A stretch of DNA of 11,456 bases, taken from IMG/VR virus record IMGVR_UViG_2648501669_000018, positions 1 to 11,456 of that record; one strand, given 5' to 3'. The notes beneath the pieces were generated by a model that was not told where the DNA came from, did not search any database, and worked only from the letters and a program-made list of their open reading frames with translations. A program made the position numbers and the translations under genes. The DNA comes from a virus. Taxonomy: Duplodnaviria > Heunggongvirae > Uroviricota > Caudoviricetes. How positions within the stretch are numbered: the first letter of the stretch is position 1; every line of letters begins with the position of its first letter. Below, in pieces: positions 1-11,456 of the stretch.

Positions 1-34
1 AAATATAGGGGCAAATCCAGAAAGTTCACCAGCC

Positions 35-77
35 AACCGCAGCACGTTCTTGCATACGACGTGCTGCGGTTTTCTTT
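35..77 (+). terminator. Rho-independent terminator (perfect 11-bp stem + T-run) ending an upstream plus-strand transcript
   Basis: Stem 37-47 ccgcagcacgt pairs perfectly with 59-69 acgtgctgcgg (11-nt loop), followed directly by ttttcttt at 70-77. A degenerate copy of the same ~40-bp module sits exactly 2700 bp downstream at 2731-2770. Confidence 0.6.
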
Positions 78-228
78 ATGATTTATGCACAATGGACAAT
101 TTGAAATTATTGATGATTGTATGGTGCATCGTTTTCTGAACCTACACTGATTTTTTGGTATAGCCTTGCCTAGCCAGTCTTACCGGATCAAACTCTTCGC
201 TATTGCAATACTAACCAAAATCATCAAT

Positions 229-257
229 TTGACAGCGATTAACCAGAATAATAGTAT
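229..257 (+). promoter_or_regulatory. Candidate sigma70 promoter for the diguanylate cyclase gene
   Basis: TTGACA at 229-234 (consensus -35), 17-bp spacer, TAGTAT at 252-257 (-10-like), in an AT-rich leader about 70 bp upstream of the ATG at 330. Motif match only. Confidence 0.3.
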
Positions 258-329
258 ACTATCACCAGTAAGAAATTATCGTTATTTGTAGCGATACATA
301 TTATATATATATCATTCTCAGGTGCGTAC

Positions 330-1661
330 ATGATTATCAAGCAGGTACCTATAAAAATAAAAATCTTCATCTTTTTATTTTCATGCATCTCTATTATATT
401 TTTGTTACTGCATGAAAATAATGGAATATACATAACACAAACAACACAAATAAGTTATAGTGTTTTCATTATTGGGCTTTTTTTCATAAACCTGATGATT
501 TTTATTTTTCTATTGCTTTACTATGTTTCTAATCAGAGACAAAGTTATCTCTTAATTCTTTCATTCGCGTTTTTGAGCAACACGTATTATTTATTAGAAG
601 TGGCTATTATTTCTTTATCTCCGTTAGGTAACGATTTATCTACAATCTATCAGAAATCAAATGATATCGCAATATATTATCTATTCCGTCAGTTCAGCTT
701 TATATCTATAATCTTTCTGGCTGTTTATTCCACCAATGTTAAAAATAAAAGTGTTTTAGAAGATAAAAGAAACATAATAATTGTTGTTTTGTCAATATTA
801 ATTCTTTTTATTACTCCGTTTGTAGCAAAAAATCTAAGCAGTGACAATATAAAATATAGTCTTAATATTATACAATACTCGCTGAATCGTCATTTGTCGA
901 CGTGGAATATCGTGTACACCAAAATAATATCAGTATTTTGGCTTGTATTACTTATCAGCTCATGCATCAGCATACGTAATTACTCAAAAATATGGTTGTG
1001 TATAATACTTATTAGTATAGTGTCAGTATGCAATAATCTAATTTTATTGTATTTTATTGATAAATCCCATCCTGCATGGTACATGACAAAATTTCTTGAA
1101 TTGATATCAATGATTTATATCATTTCAACACTCATGTATTATGTTTTCAGGAAATTAAATCATGCTAATCATATGGCAATTCATGATCCACTAACGAATA
1201 CATACAATAGAAGATACTTTATTGACTCATTGAAGAATATATCAAAACACCATGATTTCTCAGTAATAATGTTAGATATTGACAATTTCAAAAGCATCAA
1301 TGACAAATGGGGGCATCATATGGGTGATCAAGTCATAGTAATGGTTACCAGAATAATAAAAAAATCCATCAGGAAAGAGGATATATTAGGGCGCTTAGGC
1401 GGTGAGGAGTTCGGTATTATCATTAAAGGTAATACTCAAAAGCTCTTGCTATCAATTGCAGAGCGAATCAGAAAAAACATTGAAGAGCAATGCTCGGAAA
1501 AATTATTATCGCATGGACCTGAGAAAATAACTGTCAGTATTGGTTGCTTTACTTCAAAAGAGAATAATCTCAGTCCATCTGAAATGTTAGTCAATGCCGA
1601 TAAAGCGTTATATCAAGCCAAAAGAACCGGAAAAAACAAGGTGATAACTCACTCAAAATAA
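330..1661 (+). CDS. Membrane-anchored GGDEF-domain diguanylate cyclase (c-di-GMP synthase); possibly the prophage-associated dgcX
   Basis: 443-aa ORF with SD-like AGGTG at 319-323, 6 nt before the ATG. N-terminal ~270 aa is very hydrophobic with multiple predicted TM helices. C-terminus is a canonical GGDEF domain: DPLTNTYNRRYF, MLDIDNFKSINDKWGHHMGD (Asp at the base-specifying position, so GTP/c-di-GMP type), active site GGEEF, and an RxxD I-site (RKED) 5 residues upstream of GGEEF. The gene is strikingly AT-rich compared with the flanking tail genes, indicating foreign origin. Confidence 0.9.
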   Translation: MIIKQVPIKIKIFIFLFSCISIIFLLLHENNGIYITQTTQISYSVFIIGLFFINLMIFIFLLLYYVSNQRQSYLLILSFAFLSNTYYLLEVAIISLSPLGNDLSTIYQKSNDIAIYYLFRQFSFISIIFLAVYSTNVKNKSVLEDKRNIIIVVLSILILFITPFVAKNLSSDNIKYSLNIIQYSLNRHLSTWNIVYTKIISVFWLVLLISSCISIRNYSKIWLCIILISIVSVCNNLILLYFIDKSHPAWYMTKFLELISMIYIISTLMYYVFRKLNHANHMAIHDPLTNTYNRRYFIDSLKNISKHHDFSVIMLDIDNFKSINDKWGHHMGDQVIVMVTRIIKKSIRKEDILGRLGGEEFGIIIKGNTQKLLLSIAERIRKNIEEQCSEKLLSHGPEKITVSIGCFTSKENNLSPSEMLVNADKALYQAKRTGKNKVITHSK

Positions 1662-1690
1662 ACACCTTTTTAAAATACAGCCCCAATAAA

Positions 1691-1723
1691 CTGCAGAATA
1701 TTATCCCATATAATATCCTGCAG
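1691..1723. terminator. Imperfect inverted repeat between convergent genes; possible weak bidirectional terminator
   Basis: ctgcagaatatta (1691-1703) and taatatcctgcag (1711-1723) form a 13-bp stem with one mismatch. It lies between the cyclase stop (1661) and the tfa-relic stop (1735). On the minus strand it is followed by TTTATT. The stem is AT-rich and so of low stability. Confidence 0.25.
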
Positions 1724-1734
1724 TTCGTAATGCA

Positions 1735-2004
1735 CTATTCGATAATGGGTCCTGTTGGCCATTCAATATCCGGTGCAGTTGTTGTATTAACACGGTTCAG
1801 CAACACCCGATACTTCTTCCAGGCTTCCAGCAACGAGTTTTCTTCCTCCGTTGCGATCTCCAGATCTACAGCATCCTGAAGTGGCGCAATATGCTCACTG
1901 AATTCCTGGATGTAGAACTATGTGGTGACGGTCTTCCAGCCATTCGGCTCCTGCTGTATCGAAGCATACCAGGCTATTTCAATATCGCTATGCTGCGGCA
2001 GCAT
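1735..2004 (-). pseudogene. tfa: Tail fibre assembly (tfa) gene remnant, 3' portion with in-frame TAG
   Basis: Minus-strand translation gives ...[54 protein letters not shown], matching the C-terminus of lambda-type Tfa as I recall it. The 60-codon block (1738-1917) has no start codon and is preceded by an in-frame TAG (1918-1920). A short ATG-initiated stretch (from 2004) upstream is in the same frame. It is about 90% identical at nucleotide level to the second copy at 2806-2915. Confidence 0.7.
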
Positions 2005-2012
2005 TTAACCCC

Positions 2013-2041
2013 TTGTAATTCATCACCATAATTGATTTAAT
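2013..2041 (+). promoter_or_regulatory. Candidate sigma70 promoter (extended -10) for the methyltransferase gene
   Basis: TTGTAA at 2013-2018, 17-bp spacer, TGaTTTAAT at 2033-2041 (TGn extended -10 plus TTTAAT). The ATG at 2061 lacks a clear Shine-Dalgarno, so the transcript may have a very short leader. Confidence 0.25.
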
Positions 2042-2060
2042 TCACAAACAAAACTATAAC

Positions 2061-2729
2061 ATGGTGAAATTAATGAAAAAAAACACAGATGATGGGGCTA
2101 AAATTTACACACCACTTACCCTAAAGCTTTATGACTGGTGGGTTTTGGGAGTATCAAATCGGCTTGCATGGGGATGTCCTACAAAGGAACACCTTCTTCC
2201 ACACTTTCTGGAACATTTAGGTAACAACCATCTGGATATTGGTGTTGGAACTGGGTTTTACCTTACTCACGTACCTGAGAGTAGTCTGATATCTTTAATG
2301 GATTTGAACGAAGCTAGCCTGAACGCGGCATCTACAAGGGCTGGGGAATCAAAAATTAAACATAAAATTAGCCATGATGTTTTTGAACCTTATCCCGCGG
2401 CGTTACATGGTCAATTTGATTCCATTTCCATGTTTTACCTTCTTCACTGCCTGCCTGGAAATATATCTACAAAAAGCTGTGTAATACGCAATGCGGCGCA
2501 GGCCTTAACTGACGATGGAACTCTATACGGAGCCACAATTCTTGGCGATGGAGTTGTGCACAATAGCTTCGGTCAAAAACTGATGCGCATTTACAATCAG
2601 AAAGGCATCTTTTCAAACACAAAAGATTCCGAAGAAGGCTTAACACATATACTCTCAGAGCATTTCGAGAATGTTAAAACCAAGGTTCAAGGTACTGTAG
2701 TAATGTTTTCCGCTTCAGGGAAAAAATAG
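2061..2729 (+). CDS. Putative class I SAM-dependent methyltransferase (cargo gene, substrate unknown)
   Basis: 222-aa ORF. Motif I-like glycine-rich loop LDIGVGTGFY, followed by an acidic motif (ISLMDLNE) and a hydrophobic FDSISMFYLLHCLPG stretch, consistent with a Rossmann-fold methyltransferase. No convincing SD; an alternative start is the ATG at 2073 (MKKNTDD). Intermediate AT content and orientation opposite to the tail genes. Confidence 0.5.
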   Translation: MVKLMKKNTDDGAKIYTPLTLKLYDWWVLGVSNRLAWGCPTKEHLLPHFLEHLGNNHLDIGVGTGFYLTHVPESSLISLMDLNEASLNAASTRAGESKIKHKISHDVFEPYPAALHGQFDSISMFYLLHCLPGNISTKSCVIRNAAQALTDDGTLYGATILGDGVVHNSFGQKLMRIYNQKGIFSNTKDSEEGLTHILSEHFENVKTKVQGTVVMFSASGKK

Positions 2730-2730
2730 C

Positions 2731-2770
2731 ATCCAACCGCAGCTCGCTCTTGCTTAAGACGTGCTGCGGC
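2731..2770 (+). repeat. Degenerate second copy of the terminator hairpin module seen at 31-70
   Basis: atccaaccgcagctcgctcttgcttaagacgtgctgcggc aligns base-for-base with 31-70. The stem is reduced to 7 bp plus 2 and the T-run is replaced by cataatcc. It starts 2 nt after the methyltransferase stop. Confidence 0.6.
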
Positions 2771-2783
2771 ATAATCCCAATGA

Positions 2784-2966
2784 TTACTCCCTGACAGGGT
2801 TCGTAGGCCACTCAATATCAGGTGCAGTTGATGTATCAACACGGTTCAGCAACACCCGATACTTCTTCCAGACTTCCAGCAACAAGGTTTCTTCCTCCGT
2901 TGCGATTTCCAGCTCAACAACAGTCTGAACGTACCAGGAACAGCCTCCTTCAGGGCTTGAAGGATA
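2784..2966 (-). pseudogene. tfa: Tail fibre assembly (tfa) remnant (C-terminal 60 codons, no start codon)
   Basis: Minus-strand translation, immediately after and in frame with the stf TGA: [60 protein letters not shown]. No ATG/GTG/TTG start. An orphan strong SD (GAAGGAGG, minus strand, about 2941-2948) is followed by no start codon, consistent with a destroyed tfa initiation region. Confidence 0.7.
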
Positions 2967-5900
2967 TCAATGTTCGCTTCCTGTTAACTGCCCGACAAGT
3001 GCAACCAGTTCGCTTACCTGATTTTCCAGAGTGGTGATCCGGGTGCCTGCTGTTGCCAGATTTTCACGTAACGTTGTATTTTCCTCTTCCAGCGCGGTAA
3101 CGCGATCATCTGTTTCACGGGCGACCTGAACAAGTAACCCCGTCACGGCGGAGTAGTCAACATTAAGATAGCGAGTTTCTTCGCGTAGCTCGTTGCCGTC
3201 AACGGTCGGACCTTGCAACTCTTCACCATAATGAGTAAACGATCCCACAGCTTCAGGTATCGCCTCCATTACTTCCTGTGCAATAACGCCAGCATAAGGC
3301 ATTCCGTTTTCCTTGAGCGTGTAGGTGTACCCGTTCATTTTACGGATTGCTTTCGTAGCGTCGCTGATAACGCGAATATCGTCTTTAAGGTCGCGGTCTG
3401 ATGACTGATTCAGCGTTGTGCAATTAATAGCGCCATTTACATCAAACAACTGGCCTGCTGATGTTTTTTGCGCATAAAACAGATACGCAGCAGACGTTCC
3501 AACCTCAAAAACGTTTTGTCGATCACTTGATCCCCATACTTTTGCGGCAAATGATAGTTCTGTATTACCTAAGTTCTGTAAAACAAAACGATTTCCAGTC
3601 CCTGTTTGTTTTGTAAGAGTTAAATCAACAGTTGAGTTAACCTCATCCTTGTTGATAGTGAGCGCCTGTGCTTTAGCCCCGTTAACAGCACCTGTTTTGA
3701 GTTGAACCGCGCCGTCATTACCATTTAACAGTATCTCAGCTCCGCTAAAGAAATTTTTTAGCGACAGCATCTTACTTACGCCGACTGATGAACCCAACGC
3801 CCACGCGAGAGAATTACCGGTGCTATCAAACCCACGTACAAAGCAATCCATTTTGCTATAGTCTGACGTGCTTCCAAGGACATCAATTCGCCCTCCGCCA
3901 GATTTTACCGGGTTAGATGTGGTTAATGACCTGACAGCAAGATCGGTAGATGAATTGAGATCGTCTACTGTTAGTAATTTCTTCCATTCCTGCGTCGTTC
4001 CATTTTCAATTGTTCTTCCCCAAAAACCGGAATTGCGGCCTCCGAACTGCACAGCATAATTTTTACTAAATTGAACATGAATGCCGCCAAGAACCATAGA
4101 ACCTGCCGGGCCGTTTGTACTGCCTGCAATTGGTATAAATTTATTAATGTTATCAGTATGCTGCGTGTTCCAGTCTCGTCCTGTTTTTGTAAGCAGTCCT
4201 AATGTCGTGTCGAGCGCTTCGGTTAAAGTAAGGTTTTTAAATTTAACTGCGCTACTTTCGCCAAGACTTAAGTTGTTTCGCGCATCTTCTACTGTTGTCG
4301 CACCTGTACCTCCTTGCCCAACAGCTAATGGCAACCAGCCAGTGCCATTATGACAACCCCACAAACCAGATTTGGAAACCTGTAAGCGTGGTGCGCCTGA
4401 AGAATACGTAGAATATACGTAAGTTGTTTCTTTTCCCTCTTCAACCCTTTCTGTTGATACATCTCTCTTCCATTCAGACCAGGTACCGCTTCCTCCTTCA
4501 TATATTCGTCTATAAGTAATTCCCGGATTATTATAAGGGTAGTACACCTGAACGCAGGAAGAAGCAGTGTTGGCTCTCGTTTGGAGCACTATTAAAGCGC
4601 CCGCCAGACCGATTGGGTAATTTAATTCTTCTGTTGCGTAAGCGCTCGTTGGTTGTTGATAGAAACCAGAATATTCACCGGTAAGGGTGTTTAGGTCAGT
4701 ATTAGCAAGGCCAGCTTTTTGCTCATACATTACCCGCAAGTTCGCACGTGCTTGCTCGATAGTTCTTCCACCAGTACCGCCCTGGGCTAAACCTAACGGA
4801 GACCATTGTCCAGAAGAAGAATCATAAACTCCCCAACTCCCGTTAGTATGGATTTCAAAGAAACGATCACCAGTTGGACCATACATACGAGTTGTTGATT
4901 CATTTTGACCAAAGCGGCTTAATTCATCTCTGCGGGTATGACGTATCCATTGCGGGCCAGAACTTTGGCTGTAAATGTACGAATACAATGATTTTGTATC
5001 TGAACCAACAAATAGACCGGAATATCTTTTTGTTGACACTTCTGATCTAACTATATAACCAGAAATAAGATTATCACCGGCACTAGACGCTACTGATGGA
5101 TAACCTTTCGCTGAGATGTAAATCCTGACAAATCCAATATAACCTGATGGCTCAACAGAGATATCAGTGCAGGTCATGGCAACTTCACCAAGACCGATAT
5201 TATCGCCAACAATTACTTGCGCCTGGTTGCGATAATTAAGTGCGTCCGCCGCAGATTTCGCCGCGTTTGTTTCACTGGATTTAGCATTAGTTTCGCTGGC
5301 TTTAGCGTTGGTTTCGCTGCTCTTTGCTGCTGCCTCGCTATTTTTCGCGTTGGTTTCTGATTTTTTGGCTGCTGTCGCGGAGTTTGCCGATGCAGTTTGT
5401 GAGTCTGCTGCCGCCTGTGCGCTGTTATCCGCATTCGTCTCAGACGTTTTTGCGGCCTTCGCGGAATTTCCTGCCGCCGTTGCCGAGGAAGCTGCACTAC
5501 TGGCACTTGATGATGCGTTCGTTTCTGATGATTTCGCTGCCTCTTTTGAGGCCGCCGCATCCCGGGCTGAGGTGGCAGCTTCTGACGCTTTCGTGGTCGC
5601 GGTGGATGCAGAAGTGGCTGCTGATTGTTGTGATGCTGCGGCATTCGTTTCTGACGTTTTCGCCGCACCGGCACTGGTGGCTGCCGCGCTTTTTGAGGAC
5701 TCTGCAGCGGCAGCACTTTTTGATGCTTCAGTAGCCTTTGTTGATGCCGTTCCTGCGCTGGAAGACGCTGACTGAGCCGACGTCGCGGCCTGCCCGGCTG
5801 ATGTGCTGGCTGCACGTGCTGAGCCTGTAGCATCAGTCGCATGGGTTGCCGCCTCACGGGCTGATGTGCTGGCATCGCTGGCTGACTTCTTCGCGGCTGC

Positions 5901-6272
5901 CGTGTTCTGTGCCACTGCGGACGCGTTACGCGCCACCTCTTCCACCATCAGTTCAAAGCGGCGCAGTGCCTCCGGACGGGCATCATCCTCCGTCATGGCA
6001 CCGAGAAAATCATTCAGCGTACCCGGTTGTGAGTCTTCATACACGGTGATGGTCCCGGCATGCGATGGCGGGAAGCCTTCCACCAACAGAATAACGCTGT
6101 ACTGACCGTACTCAACATCCATGCTGTAACGCCCGGCTTCATCCGGATTTTCAGATGCCACCGTGTTCACCACCACCGTGGTGCTGTTACGTTTTGCTTT
6201 CAGCTGGATTGTGCAGTTCTGTACCGGTTTACCTGCACCGTCTTTCAGTACACCTGAAATCTTTACTGCCAT
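2967..6272 (-). CDS. stf: Side tail fibre protein (lambda Stf-like N-terminus; C-terminal intramolecular chaperone domain)
   Basis: The N-terminus MAVKISGVLKDGAGKPVQNCTIQLKAKRNSTTVVVNTVASENPDEAGRYSMDVEYGQYSV... closely matches lambda Stf as I recall it. The ORF track starts at a GTG (6278); the ATG at 6272 (MAVKIS) is the likelier start. It contains a long Ala/Ser/Thr-rich repeat region, two GQGGTG fibre-repeat motifs and a C-terminal S74-type chaperone domain. Stop TGA at 2967-2969. Confidence 0.9.
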   Translation of the reverse strand: MAVKISGVLKDGAGKPVQNCTIQLKAKRNSTTVVVNTVASENPDEAGRYSMDVEYGQYSVILLVEGFPPSHAGTITVYEDSQPGTLNDFLGAMTEDDARPEALRRFELMVEEVARNASAVAQNTAAAKKSASDASTSAREAATHATDATGSARAASTSAGQAATSAQSASSSAGTASTKATEASKSAAAAESSKSAAATSAGAAKTSETNAAASQQSAATSASTATTKASEAATSARDAAASKEAAKSSETNASSSASSAASSATAAGNSAKAAKTSETNADNSAQAAADSQTASANSATAAKKSETNAKNSEAAAKSSETNAKASETNAKSSETNAAKSAADALNYRNQAQVIVGDNIGLGEVAMTCTDISVEPSGYIGFVRIYISAKGYPSVASSAGDNLISGYIVRSEVSTKRYSGLFVGSDTKSLYSYIYSQSSGPQWIRHTRRDELSRFGQNESTTRMYGPTGDRFFEIHTNGSWGVYDSSSGQWSPLGLAQGGTGGRTIEQARANLRVMYEQKAGLANTDLNTLTGEYSGFYQQPTSAYATEELNYPIGLAGALIVLQTRANTASSCVQVYYPYNNPGITYRRIYEGGSGTWSEWKRDVSTERVEEGKETTYVYSTYSSGAPRLQVSKSGLWGCHNGTGWLPLAVGQGGTGATTVEDARNNLSLGESSAVKFKNLTLTEALDTTLGLLTKTGRDWNTQHTDNINKFIPIAGSTNGPAGSMVLGGIHVQFSKNYAVQFGGRNSGFWGRTIENGTTQEWKKLLTVDDLNSSTDLAVRSLTTSNPVKSGGGRIDVLGSTSDYSKMDCFVRGFDSTGNSLAWALGSSVGVSKMLSLKNFFSGAEILLNGNDGAVQLKTGAVNGAKAQALTINKDEVNSTVDLTLTKQTGTGNRFVLQNLGNTELSFAAKVWGSSDRQNVFEVGTSAAYLFYAQKTSAGQLFDVNGAINCTTLNQSSDRDLKDDIRVISDATKAIRKMNGYTYTLKENGMPYAGVIAQEVMEAIPEAVGSFTHYGEELQGPTVDGNELREETRYLNVDYSAVTGLLVQVARETDDRVTALEEENTTLRENLATAGTRITTLENQVSELVALVGQLTGSEH
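2970..3401 (-). other. C-terminal intramolecular chaperone / auto-processing domain (peptidase S74-like) of the tail fibre
   Basis: Last ~144 aa: SDRDLKDDIRVISDATKAIRKMNGYTYTLKENG...GVIAQEVMEAIPEAV...coiled-coil tail. This matches the hallmark S-D-x-x-L-K cleavage motif and the GYxY / IAQE core of chaperone domains in endosialidase and T5 L-shaped fibre proteins (recalled from family knowledge). Confidence 0.7.
5216..5906 (-). repeat. Low-complexity Ala/Ser/Thr-rich repeat region inside stf (K-S/T-SETNA-type repeats)
   Basis: Protein segment of about residues 125-355 is almost entirely A/S/T/K/E with reiterated ...KSSETNA... units. The DNA shows reiterated gcgttggtttcgct-like units. This compositional bias creates several spurious overlapping ORFs on both strands. 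Confidence 0.75.
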
Positions 6273-6283
6273 ATTCACCCCAC

Positions 6284-6309
6284 AAAAAAGCCCGCCTGAA
6301 CCGGCGGGC
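6284..6309 (-). terminator. Rho-independent terminator downstream of lom (minus strand)
   Basis: Minus strand reads AGCCCGCC-ggttca-GGCGGGCT followed by TTTTTT (plus-strand aaaaaa at 6284-6289). The stf start codon lies only about 12 nt beyond the T-run. Confidence 0.6.
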
Positions 6310-6336
6310 TGTCATAACACTGTGTTACCTGGCTAA

Positions 6337-6936
6337 TCAGAATTTATAACCGACACCCATGATGAAACCGTCAGTGCGCCAGTCACCACTGCCGGAGCCT
6401 TCATAAGCAATATCAATGGCCACCGATTCGGTCGGGTTAAACTGCACGCCAGCTCCCCACGCCAGAGACGTGTTACTGTGGCGAGCGTCATCACTTCCGG
6501 TCAGCACATCGTGCGTTTTCCCCTTGTTGTCAGTTACGCGGAGATAATCCCCGGAGAAAGTCGACACACGGCTGTAAGCCACACCCGCCATCGCATACGC
6601 GCTGAACCATTCATTCACGCGTACAGACGGCCCCGCCATCACGCTGAACCAGCGGTTACGAACGGAGTCTTCATGCCAGCGGGTATCGCTGTAACGGGTC
6701 AGCTGGCGATTCTTGTCTCCTGCATAGCTGAATGACGTCACCAGCCCCAGTGTGTCCGTAAACTCATAACGGTATTTCACGTTAATCCCGTTAAGATCAT
6801 CGCTGCCGGGAACGTTCGTCGAGGCATGAAGATAGCCCGCGCTCAGCGTGGACTGATGTTCAGACGCCCATGCAGGCGCACCGGATACGGCCAGACAGAT
6901 GGCTGCGGACAAAATGGCGGCATAAAGTTTACGCAT
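6337..6936 (-). CDS. lom: Lom-family (Ail/Lom/PagC) outer membrane beta-barrel protein
   Basis: 199 aa with signal peptide MRKLYAAILSAAICLAVSGAPAWA. The core GINVKYRYE and the C-terminal AIDIAYEGSGSGDWRTDGFIMGVGYKF closely match lambda Lom as recalled. SD GAGAGG 6 nt upstream of the ATG. Position between J and stf is as in lambda. Confidence 0.9.
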   Translation of the reverse strand: MRKLYAAILSAAICLAVSGAPAWASEHQSTLSAGYLHASTNVPGSDDLNGINVKYRYEFTDTLGLVTSFSYAGDKNRQLTRYSDTRWHEDSVRNRWFSVMAGPSVRVNEWFSAYAMAGVAYSRVSTFSGDYLRVTDNKGKTHDVLTGSDDARHSNTSLAWGAGVQFNPTESVAIDIAYEGSGSGDWRTDGFIMGVGYKF

Positions 6937-6958
6937 AATTACCTCTCGCTTTTCTGCA

Positions 6959-6984
6959 ATAAAAAAGGCGTCATTTCTGACGCC
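6959..6984 (-). terminator. Rho-independent terminator between J and lom (minus strand)
   Basis: Minus strand: GGCGTCA-gaaa-TGACGCC followed by TTTTTTAT, located 19 nt after the J stop (7003-7005) and just upstream of the lom SD. Confidence 0.6.
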
Positions 6985-7002
6985 CGTTCTGGGTTATAAA
7001 AT

Positions 7003-10404
<3,402 letters not shown>

Positions 10405-10461
10405 TCACGCTCCATAAACGACAAAACCGCCCGCAGGCGGTTTCACATAAAACATTTTTCA

Positions 10462-11133
10462 TCAGCGACCAATCACCACAACCTGACCACCATCACCTTC
10501 ATCTGCCGTGCTGATCTCCTGAGAAACCACCCGCGACCCCACGCGCATTTCACCGTACAGAACAGGCAAAACATTGCCCTGGGCAACCATGTTATCCAGT
10601 GAGGAGAAATAGGTGTTCTGCTTACCGTTATCCGTTGTCTGTGTACGGGGAGTTCTGGCTTTCGGTGCCAGCATCTGCGCCACACCACCGAGCACCATAC
10701 TGGCACCGAGAGAAAACAGGATGCCGGTCATACCACCGGCCCCAATGGCTGCCCCCCATGCTGCAAGGGTGGCTCCGGCGGTAAAGAATGATCCGGCAAT
10801 GGCGGCAGCCCCCAGGACAATCTGGAATACGCCACCTGACTTGGCCCCGGCGACTCTGGGAACAATATGAATCACAGCGCCATCAGGCAGAGTCTCATGT
10901 AACTGCGCCGTTAACCCGGACGTGCTGACGTCCCGCCCGGCAATCCGTACCTGATACCAGCCGTCGCTCAGTTTCTGACGAAACGCCGGGAGCTGTGTGG
11001 CCAGTGCCCGGATGGCTTCAGCCCCCGTTTTCACACGAAGGTCGATGCGGCGACCAAATCGTTGTAAATCCCCGTAAAGGCAGATGCGCGCCATGCCCGG
11101 TGACGCCAGAGGGAGTGTGTGCGTCGCTGCCAT
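10462..11133 (-). CDS. I: Tail tip assembly protein I
   Basis: 223 aa starting MAATHTLPLASPGMARICLYGDLQRFGRR..., with a Gly/Ala-rich hydrophobic centre, matching lambda I in sequence and length. SD GAGAGG upstream. The 60-nt gap to J and ~103-nt overlap with K are as in lambda. Confidence 0.93.
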   Translation of the reverse strand: MAATHTLPLASPGMARICLYGDLQRFGRRIDLRVKTGAEAIRALATQLPAFRQKLSDGWYQVRIAGRDVSTSGLTAQLHETLPDGAVIHIVPRVAGAKSGGVFQIVLGAAAIAGSFFTAGATLAAWGAAIGAGGMTGILFSLGASMVLGGVAQMLAPKARTPRTQTTDNGKQNTYFSSLDNMVAQGNVLPVLYGEMRVGSRVVSQEISTADEGDGGQVVVIGR

Positions 11134-11456
11134 TTGTCTGTATACCTCTCTCGTTTGCTCAGTTGTTCAGGAATATGGTGCAGCAGCTCGCCATCACCAC
11201 AGTAAATGGCGGCATGATTCGGCACCGATGAACCAAAACAGCACAGCAGCACATCGCCCGGTTGTGCTGATGACAACGGCACCTGATACAGCCCTGTGGC
11301 CTCCAGATTATCCAGATAGAGATTCTGGCCGTTACGCCACCAGTCATCCTCACGATGAAAGTCCGGCATCTCAATCCCCGCCAGATGATAAGCATCCCGG
11401 AACAGTGTGTAACAGTCCGTCACACCGTGCTCAAAGCGCCGCCCGGTGAGATGCGG
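11031..11456 (-). CDS. K: Tail assembly protein K, 5'-truncated by the window edge (NlpC/P60-like C-terminal part)
   Basis: The reading frame stays open to the window end (...PHLTGRRFEHG-VTDCYTLFRDAYHLAGIEMPDF...). The track's start at 11423 is an internal GTG, not the true start. Contains a Cys...His motif typical of NlpC/P60-type tail assembly proteins. Overlaps I as in lambda. Confidence 0.85.
   Translation of the reverse strand, partial: PHLTGRRFEHGVTDCYTLFRDAYHLAGIEMPDFHREDDWWRNGQNLYLDNLEATGLYQVPLSSAQPGDVLLCCFGSSVPNHAAIYCGDGELLHHIPEQLSKRERYTDKWQRRTHSLWRHRAWRASAFTGIYNDLVAASTFV

Follow-up and report, generated by a model that had tools for sequence, protein, structure and literature searches.

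The plus-strand gene at positions 330-1661 of an 11,456-nucleotide stretch of DNA assigned to the Caudoviricetes (IMG/VR virus record IMGVR_UViG_2648501669_000018, positions 1 to 11,456; the whole stretch is here termed the window) encodes a 443-amino-acid protein in which a markedly hydrophobic N-terminal region is joined to a diguanylate cyclase (DGC), and it raises the question of what this membrane domain is and whether it senses anything on behalf of the enzyme. An earlier note, made from the letters of the DNA, had described the region as unassigned and possibly as a novel sensor module. Our results indicate instead that it is, almost beyond doubt, the MASE4 domain of the accessory DGC DgcX, which is known from Escherichia coli and is carried here as cargo by a lambdoid prophage, at its attR-proximal end. 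The open reading frame (ORF), its Pfam domains and an exact-sequence look-up, which returned WP_032083287.1 as the identical protein, all point to this MASE4-GGDEF enzyme, and the cluster of WP_032083287.1 at 90% identity comprises 6,087 sequences.

The assignment of the membrane domain is carried by a profile match: residues 40-274 align with Pfam MASE4 (PF17158) at E=1.8e-35 and 122.9 bits, for a cut-off of 28.4, over positions 4-237 of the 239 in the profile. Because this match is confident and nearly full-length, the domain can be considered neither unassigned nor novel. Scanned against all of Pfam-A at E<=1, the protein matched just MASE4, GGDEF and one noise entry, and hence no other membrane-sensor family (MASE1, MASE2, MASE3, later MASE domains, 7TMR-DISM, 5TMR-LYT and MHYT, which were not scored individually). 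The comparison with named sensor domains that the earlier note had proposed thus ended in a confident match, but to a domain that is not well characterised and has no known ligand, and which Pfam describes as a "membrane-associated sensor, integral membrane domain". DgcX resembles the family in profile score, in having a polytopic membrane domain, in its conserved residues and in the position of the domain N-terminal to a signalling output, and it departs from the Pfam definition in that the profile spans only transmembrane helices 2 to 8 (TM2-TM8), to which DgcX adds TM1. Interrupted copies are named "MASE4 domain-containing protein" in RefSeq.

That the whole protein is DgcX follows from its length, its GGEEF numbering, its RxxD I-site, a primer match, a difference of only three amino acids from another copy and a shared locus. 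Richter et al. (2014, PMC4287979) described DgcX from the E. coli strain of the O104:H4 outbreak; the protein is listed with 443 amino acids as CAU96679.1 in PMC12355678 and was called a MASE4-GGDEF protein in 2023 (PMC10459773). The protein of O104:H4 and of enteroaggregative E. coli (EAEC) 55989 (CAU96679.1) is likewise 443 residues long, with a GGEEF motif at 357-361, an N-terminus of about 270 residues with eight transmembrane helices and a gene that adjoins ybhB at the lambda attB locus (PMC4287979). The flanking prophage, on the other hand, differs here, with an S-adenosylmethionine (SAM)-dependent methyltransferase moron and tfa remnants between dgcX and stf, and differences in the adjacent prophages between dgcX strains were already noted by Richter et al. 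(PMC4287979). Primer dgcX-u-18, used by the same authors for a dgcX::lacZ fusion from the outbreak strain (PMC4287979), aligns to nucleotides 321-342, across the start codon, with a single mismatch beside its engineered HindIII site, and their upstream primer aligns at the expected distance to a near-identical locus of strain MB53 (L001). For the orthologue assignment the sequence was compared not directly with CAU96679.1 but with that of FDAARGOS_401, an isolate from Georgia; the present copy and the FDAARGOS_401 one are 99.7% identical at the nucleotide level and differ at three amino acids, K4N, I194T and K245Q being allelic differences relative to the FDAARGOS_401 copy. From its origin and its locus alone (ybhB, dgcX, tfa, stf, lom, J) we infer that FDAARGOS_401 is of the O104:H4 type, and dgcX has been reported in 2009 O104:H4 isolates from Georgia (Richter et al., PMC4287979).

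The detectable MASE4 family is small, since an exhaustive phmmer search with the N-terminal 280 amino acids against 1.84 billion representative proteins gave no more than 28 proteins at E<=1e-3, those of full length being mostly about 440-460 amino acids long. A word-indexed homologue search with the same query returned 17 matches, all of them close. MASE4 was found in 19 of the 19 relatives scanned and is accompanied by GGDEF in 17, the remaining two being fragments. Across a 17-member alignment that reaches down to 20% identity, residues L50, F60, N111, F119, R120, W192, W204, W222, W250 and E257 are invariant, and several of these, polar or aromatic, are placed by the structural models described below in the middle or outer half of the bilayer. 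The family includes two chromosomal paralogues in E. coli K-12, DgcT (YcdT) and CdgI (YeaI), which have the same MASE4-GGDEF architecture and share the invariant MASE4 residues with DgcX. DgcX is 37% identical to DgcT over residues 42-442 (E=3e-83), and its membrane part also aligns with CdgI. DgcT and CdgI, however, are encoded in the core genome, repressed by CsrA and below detection in K-12 (PMC5635695), whereas DgcX is accessory, low in GC, prophage-borne and very highly expressed; in addition, the active site of CdgI is degenerate, while the GGEEF motif of DgcX is intact.

Residues 1-270 of the dgcX product correspond to nucleotides 330-1140 of the window, the interval originally attributed to the membrane domain. 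The hydrophobic domain does lie there, but this end falls about one turn short of that of TM8, at residue 273 (nucleotide 1148). The extreme hydrophobicity claimed for the region is borne out, with a mean Kyte-Doolittle hydropathy of +0.96 for residues 1-273 versus -0.51 for residues 274-443 and hydrophobic fractions of 0.54 and 0.35, respectively, and both of the runs that had been quoted are present, IFIFLFSCISIIFLLL at residues 12-27 (nucleotides 363-410) and IIGLFFINLMIFIFLLLYYV at residues 47-66 (nucleotides 468-527). Two AlphaFold2 models were built from alignments of 21 and 17 relatives, one of the full-length protein (predicted local distance difference test, pLDDT, 83.7; predicted template modelling score, pTM, 0.71) and one of the N-terminal 285 amino acids (pLDDT 81.9, pTM 0.83). 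Both predict eight long helices separated by short loops (residues 8-27, 40-67, 72-96, 103-135, 142-169, 194-214, 220-241 and 246/249-284), in agreement with the seven or eight anticipated by the earlier note, and the 19-residue Kyte-Doolittle maximum is at least 1.59 in eight of the eight. Published counts for DgcX are eight (PMC4287979) and six (a SMART figure in PMC10459773), a disagreement that probably arises because helices 3, 4 and 8 are only marginally hydrophobic and that is here resolved in favour of eight. TM3 and TM4 (residues 72-135, nucleotides 543-734) and TM8 (residues 249-273, nucleotides 1074-1148) have maxima of 1.59-1.75 and carry conserved polar residues.

The orientation of these helices can be predicted from the distribution of positive charges. 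Loops assigned to the cytoplasm contain a mean of 7.5 lysine and arginine residues versus 3.5 for periplasmic ones, and the excess is cytoplasmic in 17 of the 17 aligned family members. The GGDEF domain requires cytoplasmic guanosine triphosphate (GTP). Given a cytoplasmic GGDEF domain, this positive-inside bias places both termini in the cytoplasm, and the predicted topology is therefore one of eight transmembrane helices, N-in/C-in, which is that of a polytopic domain and not of a single signal anchor. TM1 (residues 8-27, nucleotides 351-410, plus strand, as are all segments of the gene given here) is an additional helix N-terminal to the Pfam profile, preceded by K4, K9 and K11, with a Kyte-Doolittle maximum of 2.48, and is predicted to run from cytoplasm to periplasm. 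MASE4 proper (residues 40-274, nucleotides 447-1151) comprises the seven helices TM2-TM8 and, according to the Pfam match, the models, the charge counts and the 17-member alignment, would begin on the periplasmic side and finish on the cytoplasmic side. The longest extramembrane loop (residues 170-193, nucleotides 837-908) is predicted to be periplasmic and contains a conserved LSSxN motif, a beta-hairpin at residues 181-192 in the DSSP assignment of both models and the invariant W192; no periplasmic part exceeds 24 residues. At the other end of the domain, the linker (residues 274-285, nucleotides 1149-1184) prolongs TM8 in the full-length model as an unbroken helix (residues 249-284) that runs to residue 284 and straight into GGDEF, with DPLT at residues 286-289.

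The catalytic part bears out the fusion of a membrane domain to a cyclase. The GGDEF domain (residues 283-437, nucleotides 1176-1640, plus strand) follows directly and matches PF00990 at E=9.5e-45 and TIGR00254 (NCBIfam) at E=2.6e-48. Its GGEEF active site occupies residues 357-361, and the I-site RKED (RxxD) residues 348-351, five residues upstream, as reported for DgcX by Richter et al. (PMC4287979). To judge from these motifs, active site and I-site are both intact, as in active, product-inhibited DGCs. The glutamates E359 and E360 carry the same numbers as in the published E359A/E360A mutants (PMC10459773), and genetic evidence indicates that the overexpression phenotype of DgcX needs GGEEF, since it is lost in GGEAF and GGAAF mutants (PMC10459773). 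According to the literature, the cyclic di-GMP (c-di-GMP) made by DgcX promotes either cellulose or CsgD/curli, depending on the strain, and the very strong, RpoD/RpoS-dependent transcription of dgcX means that output is governed in large part by the level of expression.

With regard to fold, the seven-helix core (TM2-TM8) of the model superimposes on the bundles of G protein-coupled receptors (GPCRs) with a TM-score of about 0.5, a root-mean-square deviation (rmsd) of about 4 Å and 5-15% identity, a modest match that is consistent with a GPCR-like arrangement of the MASE4 core; the corresponding part of DgcT and CdgI has been described in the same terms (PMC10760455). A profile of the MASE4 alignment found no real match among PDB sequences, the best being GABA-B R1 at E=0.95, and a BFVD fold search gave only weak matches to GPCRs of eukaryotic viruses and no phage MASE4. 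Compared with eukaryotic GPCRs of class A and class C (e.g. GABA-B), and with designed soluble GPCR-like folds, DgcX has a covalently fused cyclase where the output of the receptors is a G protein; its MASE4 domain shows no significant sequence similarity to the eukaryotic proteins, and homology with them is unproven. It is conceivable, if somewhat doubtful, that the core is a true receptor that would bind, in a putative pocket (N111, R120, W192, W250 and E257), a small molecule from the host gut or the membrane and signal straight to the fused cyclase, in which case a bacterial "GPCR without a G protein" would have been spread by prophage among pathogenic E. coli. The receptor idea has already been voiced (PMC4287979, PMC10760455).

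For the domain as a whole, we lean slightly towards a sensor mechanism in which the seven-helix bundle acts through a TM8 stalk on the pairing of GGDEF domains. DGCs need two GGDEF domains to be brought together, usually by means of a dimeric stalk helix. By analogy with other membrane-bound cyclases, DgcX would act as a dimer. A small molecule, ion or lipid could alter the conformation of the bundle, and the rigid helix formed by TM8 and the stalk would then shift or rotate; this movement would determine how the two GGDEF half-sites are placed with respect to each other and thereby switch c-di-GMP synthesis, while binding of the product at the I-site would cap the output. Residues N111, R120, S171, W192, W250 and E257, in the outer half of the bundle, may form a plausible binding or switch site. 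Because the loops do not exceed 24 residues and there is no sizeable periplasmic domain, the signal is probably sensed within the membrane or at its surface.

Several points weigh against this mechanism. No ligand, signal or structure for any MASE4 protein was found in the searchable literature, so that the sensing step is one that we infer, and the view that the signal controlling the cyclase is unknown still holds. The match to GPCR folds is modest, Foldseek returned no match at E<=0.001, the PDB is itself rich in GPCRs, and the single pocket in which the conserved residues would come together is putative. Furthermore, overexpressed DgcX is active without added signal (PMC10459773), which a largely constitutive enzyme would explain equally well, and deletion of dgcX had no more than a minor phenotype in strain Fec101 (PMC10459773). 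It is possible, though on balance improbable, that MASE4 is chiefly a membrane anchor, or a dimerisation or localisation scaffold, keeping a largely constitutive DgcX in the inner membrane beside a c-di-GMP-dependent target (such as the cellulose synthase BcsA/BcsE, or PgaCD in the case of the paralogue DgcT), with output set by transcription and I-site feedback. The small effect of the deletion is in line with such a role, as are the lack of a periplasmic domain, the observation that overexpression alone suffices to turn on cellulose with CsgD unchanged (PMC10459773), the expression of dgcX above that of every other DGC gene of E. coli (PMC4287979) and the location of dgcT next to pgaABCD in K-12. 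A plain anchor, however, would not need eight helices, nor would it need N111, R120, E257 and four tryptophans to be invariant within the bilayer at 20-30% identity, and the predicted rigid continuity of TM8 with the catalytic domain is that of signal-transducing cyclases. The sensor and scaffold roles are, moreover, not mutually exclusive.

Two further explanations are considerably less likely. The presence of eight helices with conserved intramembrane polar residues, which could in principle form a substrate path, together with a weak BFVD match to lysoplasmalogenase (E=0.08), might suggest a transporter or membrane enzyme fused to the cyclase, with no receptor involved; this is very unlikely, given that no Pfam transporter or enzyme family was matched at E<=1, that no transporter-typical internal repeat is present and that a signalling output is fused to the domain in 17 of the 17 full-length members scanned. 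Scarcely credible is the notion of an undescribed sensor module reporting phage infection or prophage state, the former being among the signals that the earlier note had suggested. The gene is indeed carried by a prophage, at a distance of 643 bp from the att core of the MB53 locus, and among the matches of its GGDEF part are several PHROG families of unknown function, but the full-length Pfam match and the publication of DgcX in 2014 contradict an undescribed module, and the same domain is found in the chromosomal, non-prophage DgcT and CdgI. In addition, DgcX matched no PADLOC defence family at E<=0.01, no DNA match to dgcX was found among 50,697 deposited phage genomes, and a non-lambdoid island between intS and dsdC likewise harbours the gene. 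The domain, its name, the helix count, the paralogues and the GPCR-like fold are all already known from publications, the small additions made here being the resolution of the count at eight helices, the list of invariant intramembrane residues and the boundaries of the dgcX cassette in the prophage. The activating signal of MASE4 is a real question, but one that the finding of DgcX in this window does not advance.

Of 5,426 complete E. coli genomes, 771 (14%) carry dgcX, at 99% identity or more in 670 and at 90-95% in 86. A 94.5%-identical allele, at 5001-6332 of L006 (NZ_CP051765.1), lies in another island, between intS (on the argW side) and dsdC, with a tfa remnant after dgcX. The intS-dsdC interval is the Fec101-type location of dgcX (PMC10459773), and the recurrence of a tfa remnant beside the gene suggests that part of a tail-fibre-assembly gene moved along with the cassette.

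In the window, the context is best read by comparison with the MB53 locus, which is 99.7% identical over positions 20-2800 and has the order bioA, ybhB, dgcX, tfa remnant, methyltransferase, tfa remnant, tail fibre, lom and J. In MB53, 643 bp separate the lambda att core from the start codon of dgcX downstream of it, and homology to K-12 ends precisely at the core. The core, GCTTTTTTATACTAA, is absent from the window, which begins about 311 bp inside the prophage, and positions 1-2100 gave no real match to the ybhC-ybhB region of K-12, indicating that the DNA upstream of dgcX is phage or cassette and not host. The approximately 390 bp that follow the core match the attP arm of phages HK106/HK97, up to about window position 79. 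At the end of this homology lies a terminator-like hairpin (positions 35-78, plus strand) with a GC-rich stem of 14 bp followed by the T-run TTTTCTTT and a predicted RNA folding energy of -24.7 kcal/mol (z=-5.1). The lambda sib site was considered as a candidate for this hairpin and rejected; since the HK97 annotation places sib closer to the core, the element is reported as terminator-like only.

Homology to phages breaks off at about position 79 and is taken up again at 1747, by tfa and the methyltransferase. The intervening dgcX cassette (about 80-1736, some 1.66 kb) has a GC content of 0.27-0.34 and lies between the attP arm and the tfa remnant (also L001 8656-9060). Within it, the GC content is 0.27 in the MASE4 part and 0.34 in the GGDEF part, while that of the tail genes is 0.48-0.56. 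In HK97, by contrast, only about 230 bp separate the attP arm from the tail-fibre-assembly gene. A low-GC cassette wedged in this manner into a lambdoid prophage implies that the cyclase had been rightly called horizontally acquired. Upstream of dgcX, a candidate promoter-like site (TTGACA-17-TAGTAT, positions 229-257, plus strand) is near-consensus and sigma-70-like, with 10 of 12 matches, 73 bp from the ATG, the number of such sites not being above the shuffled expectation; it falls inside the -412 to +18 fragment that drove very strong lacZ expression (PMC4287979).

Downstream of dgcX, the first tfa remnant (about 1737-1913) is annotated in the MB53 locus. Between it and the second (about 2786-2920) lies a further cargo gene, encoding a class I SAM-dependent methyltransferase of 222 amino acids (positions 2061-2729, plus strand; Methyltransf_12 at E=3.8e-09 and phrog_2132 at E=7.9e-157), on the strand opposite to the tail genes and common in lambdoid phages (e.g. 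2G7b and ev243). The side tail fibre (1,103 amino acids, positions 2967-6278, minus strand) has a repetitive middle rich in Ala, Ser and Thr, with a local GC content of up to 0.61, over which long spurious ORFs extend (5213-5875 and 5308-5775); its MB53 counterpart, of 1,204 amino acids, is annotated with a C-terminal S74-family endopeptidase. The remainder of the window is a standard lambdoid tail module on the minus strand (6337-6936, 7003-10401, 10462-11133 and 11031-11423), the products of which are a Lom/Ail outer-membrane protein, the tail-tip protein J (1,132 amino acids), the tail assembly protein I and a K-like peptidase of the C40 family.
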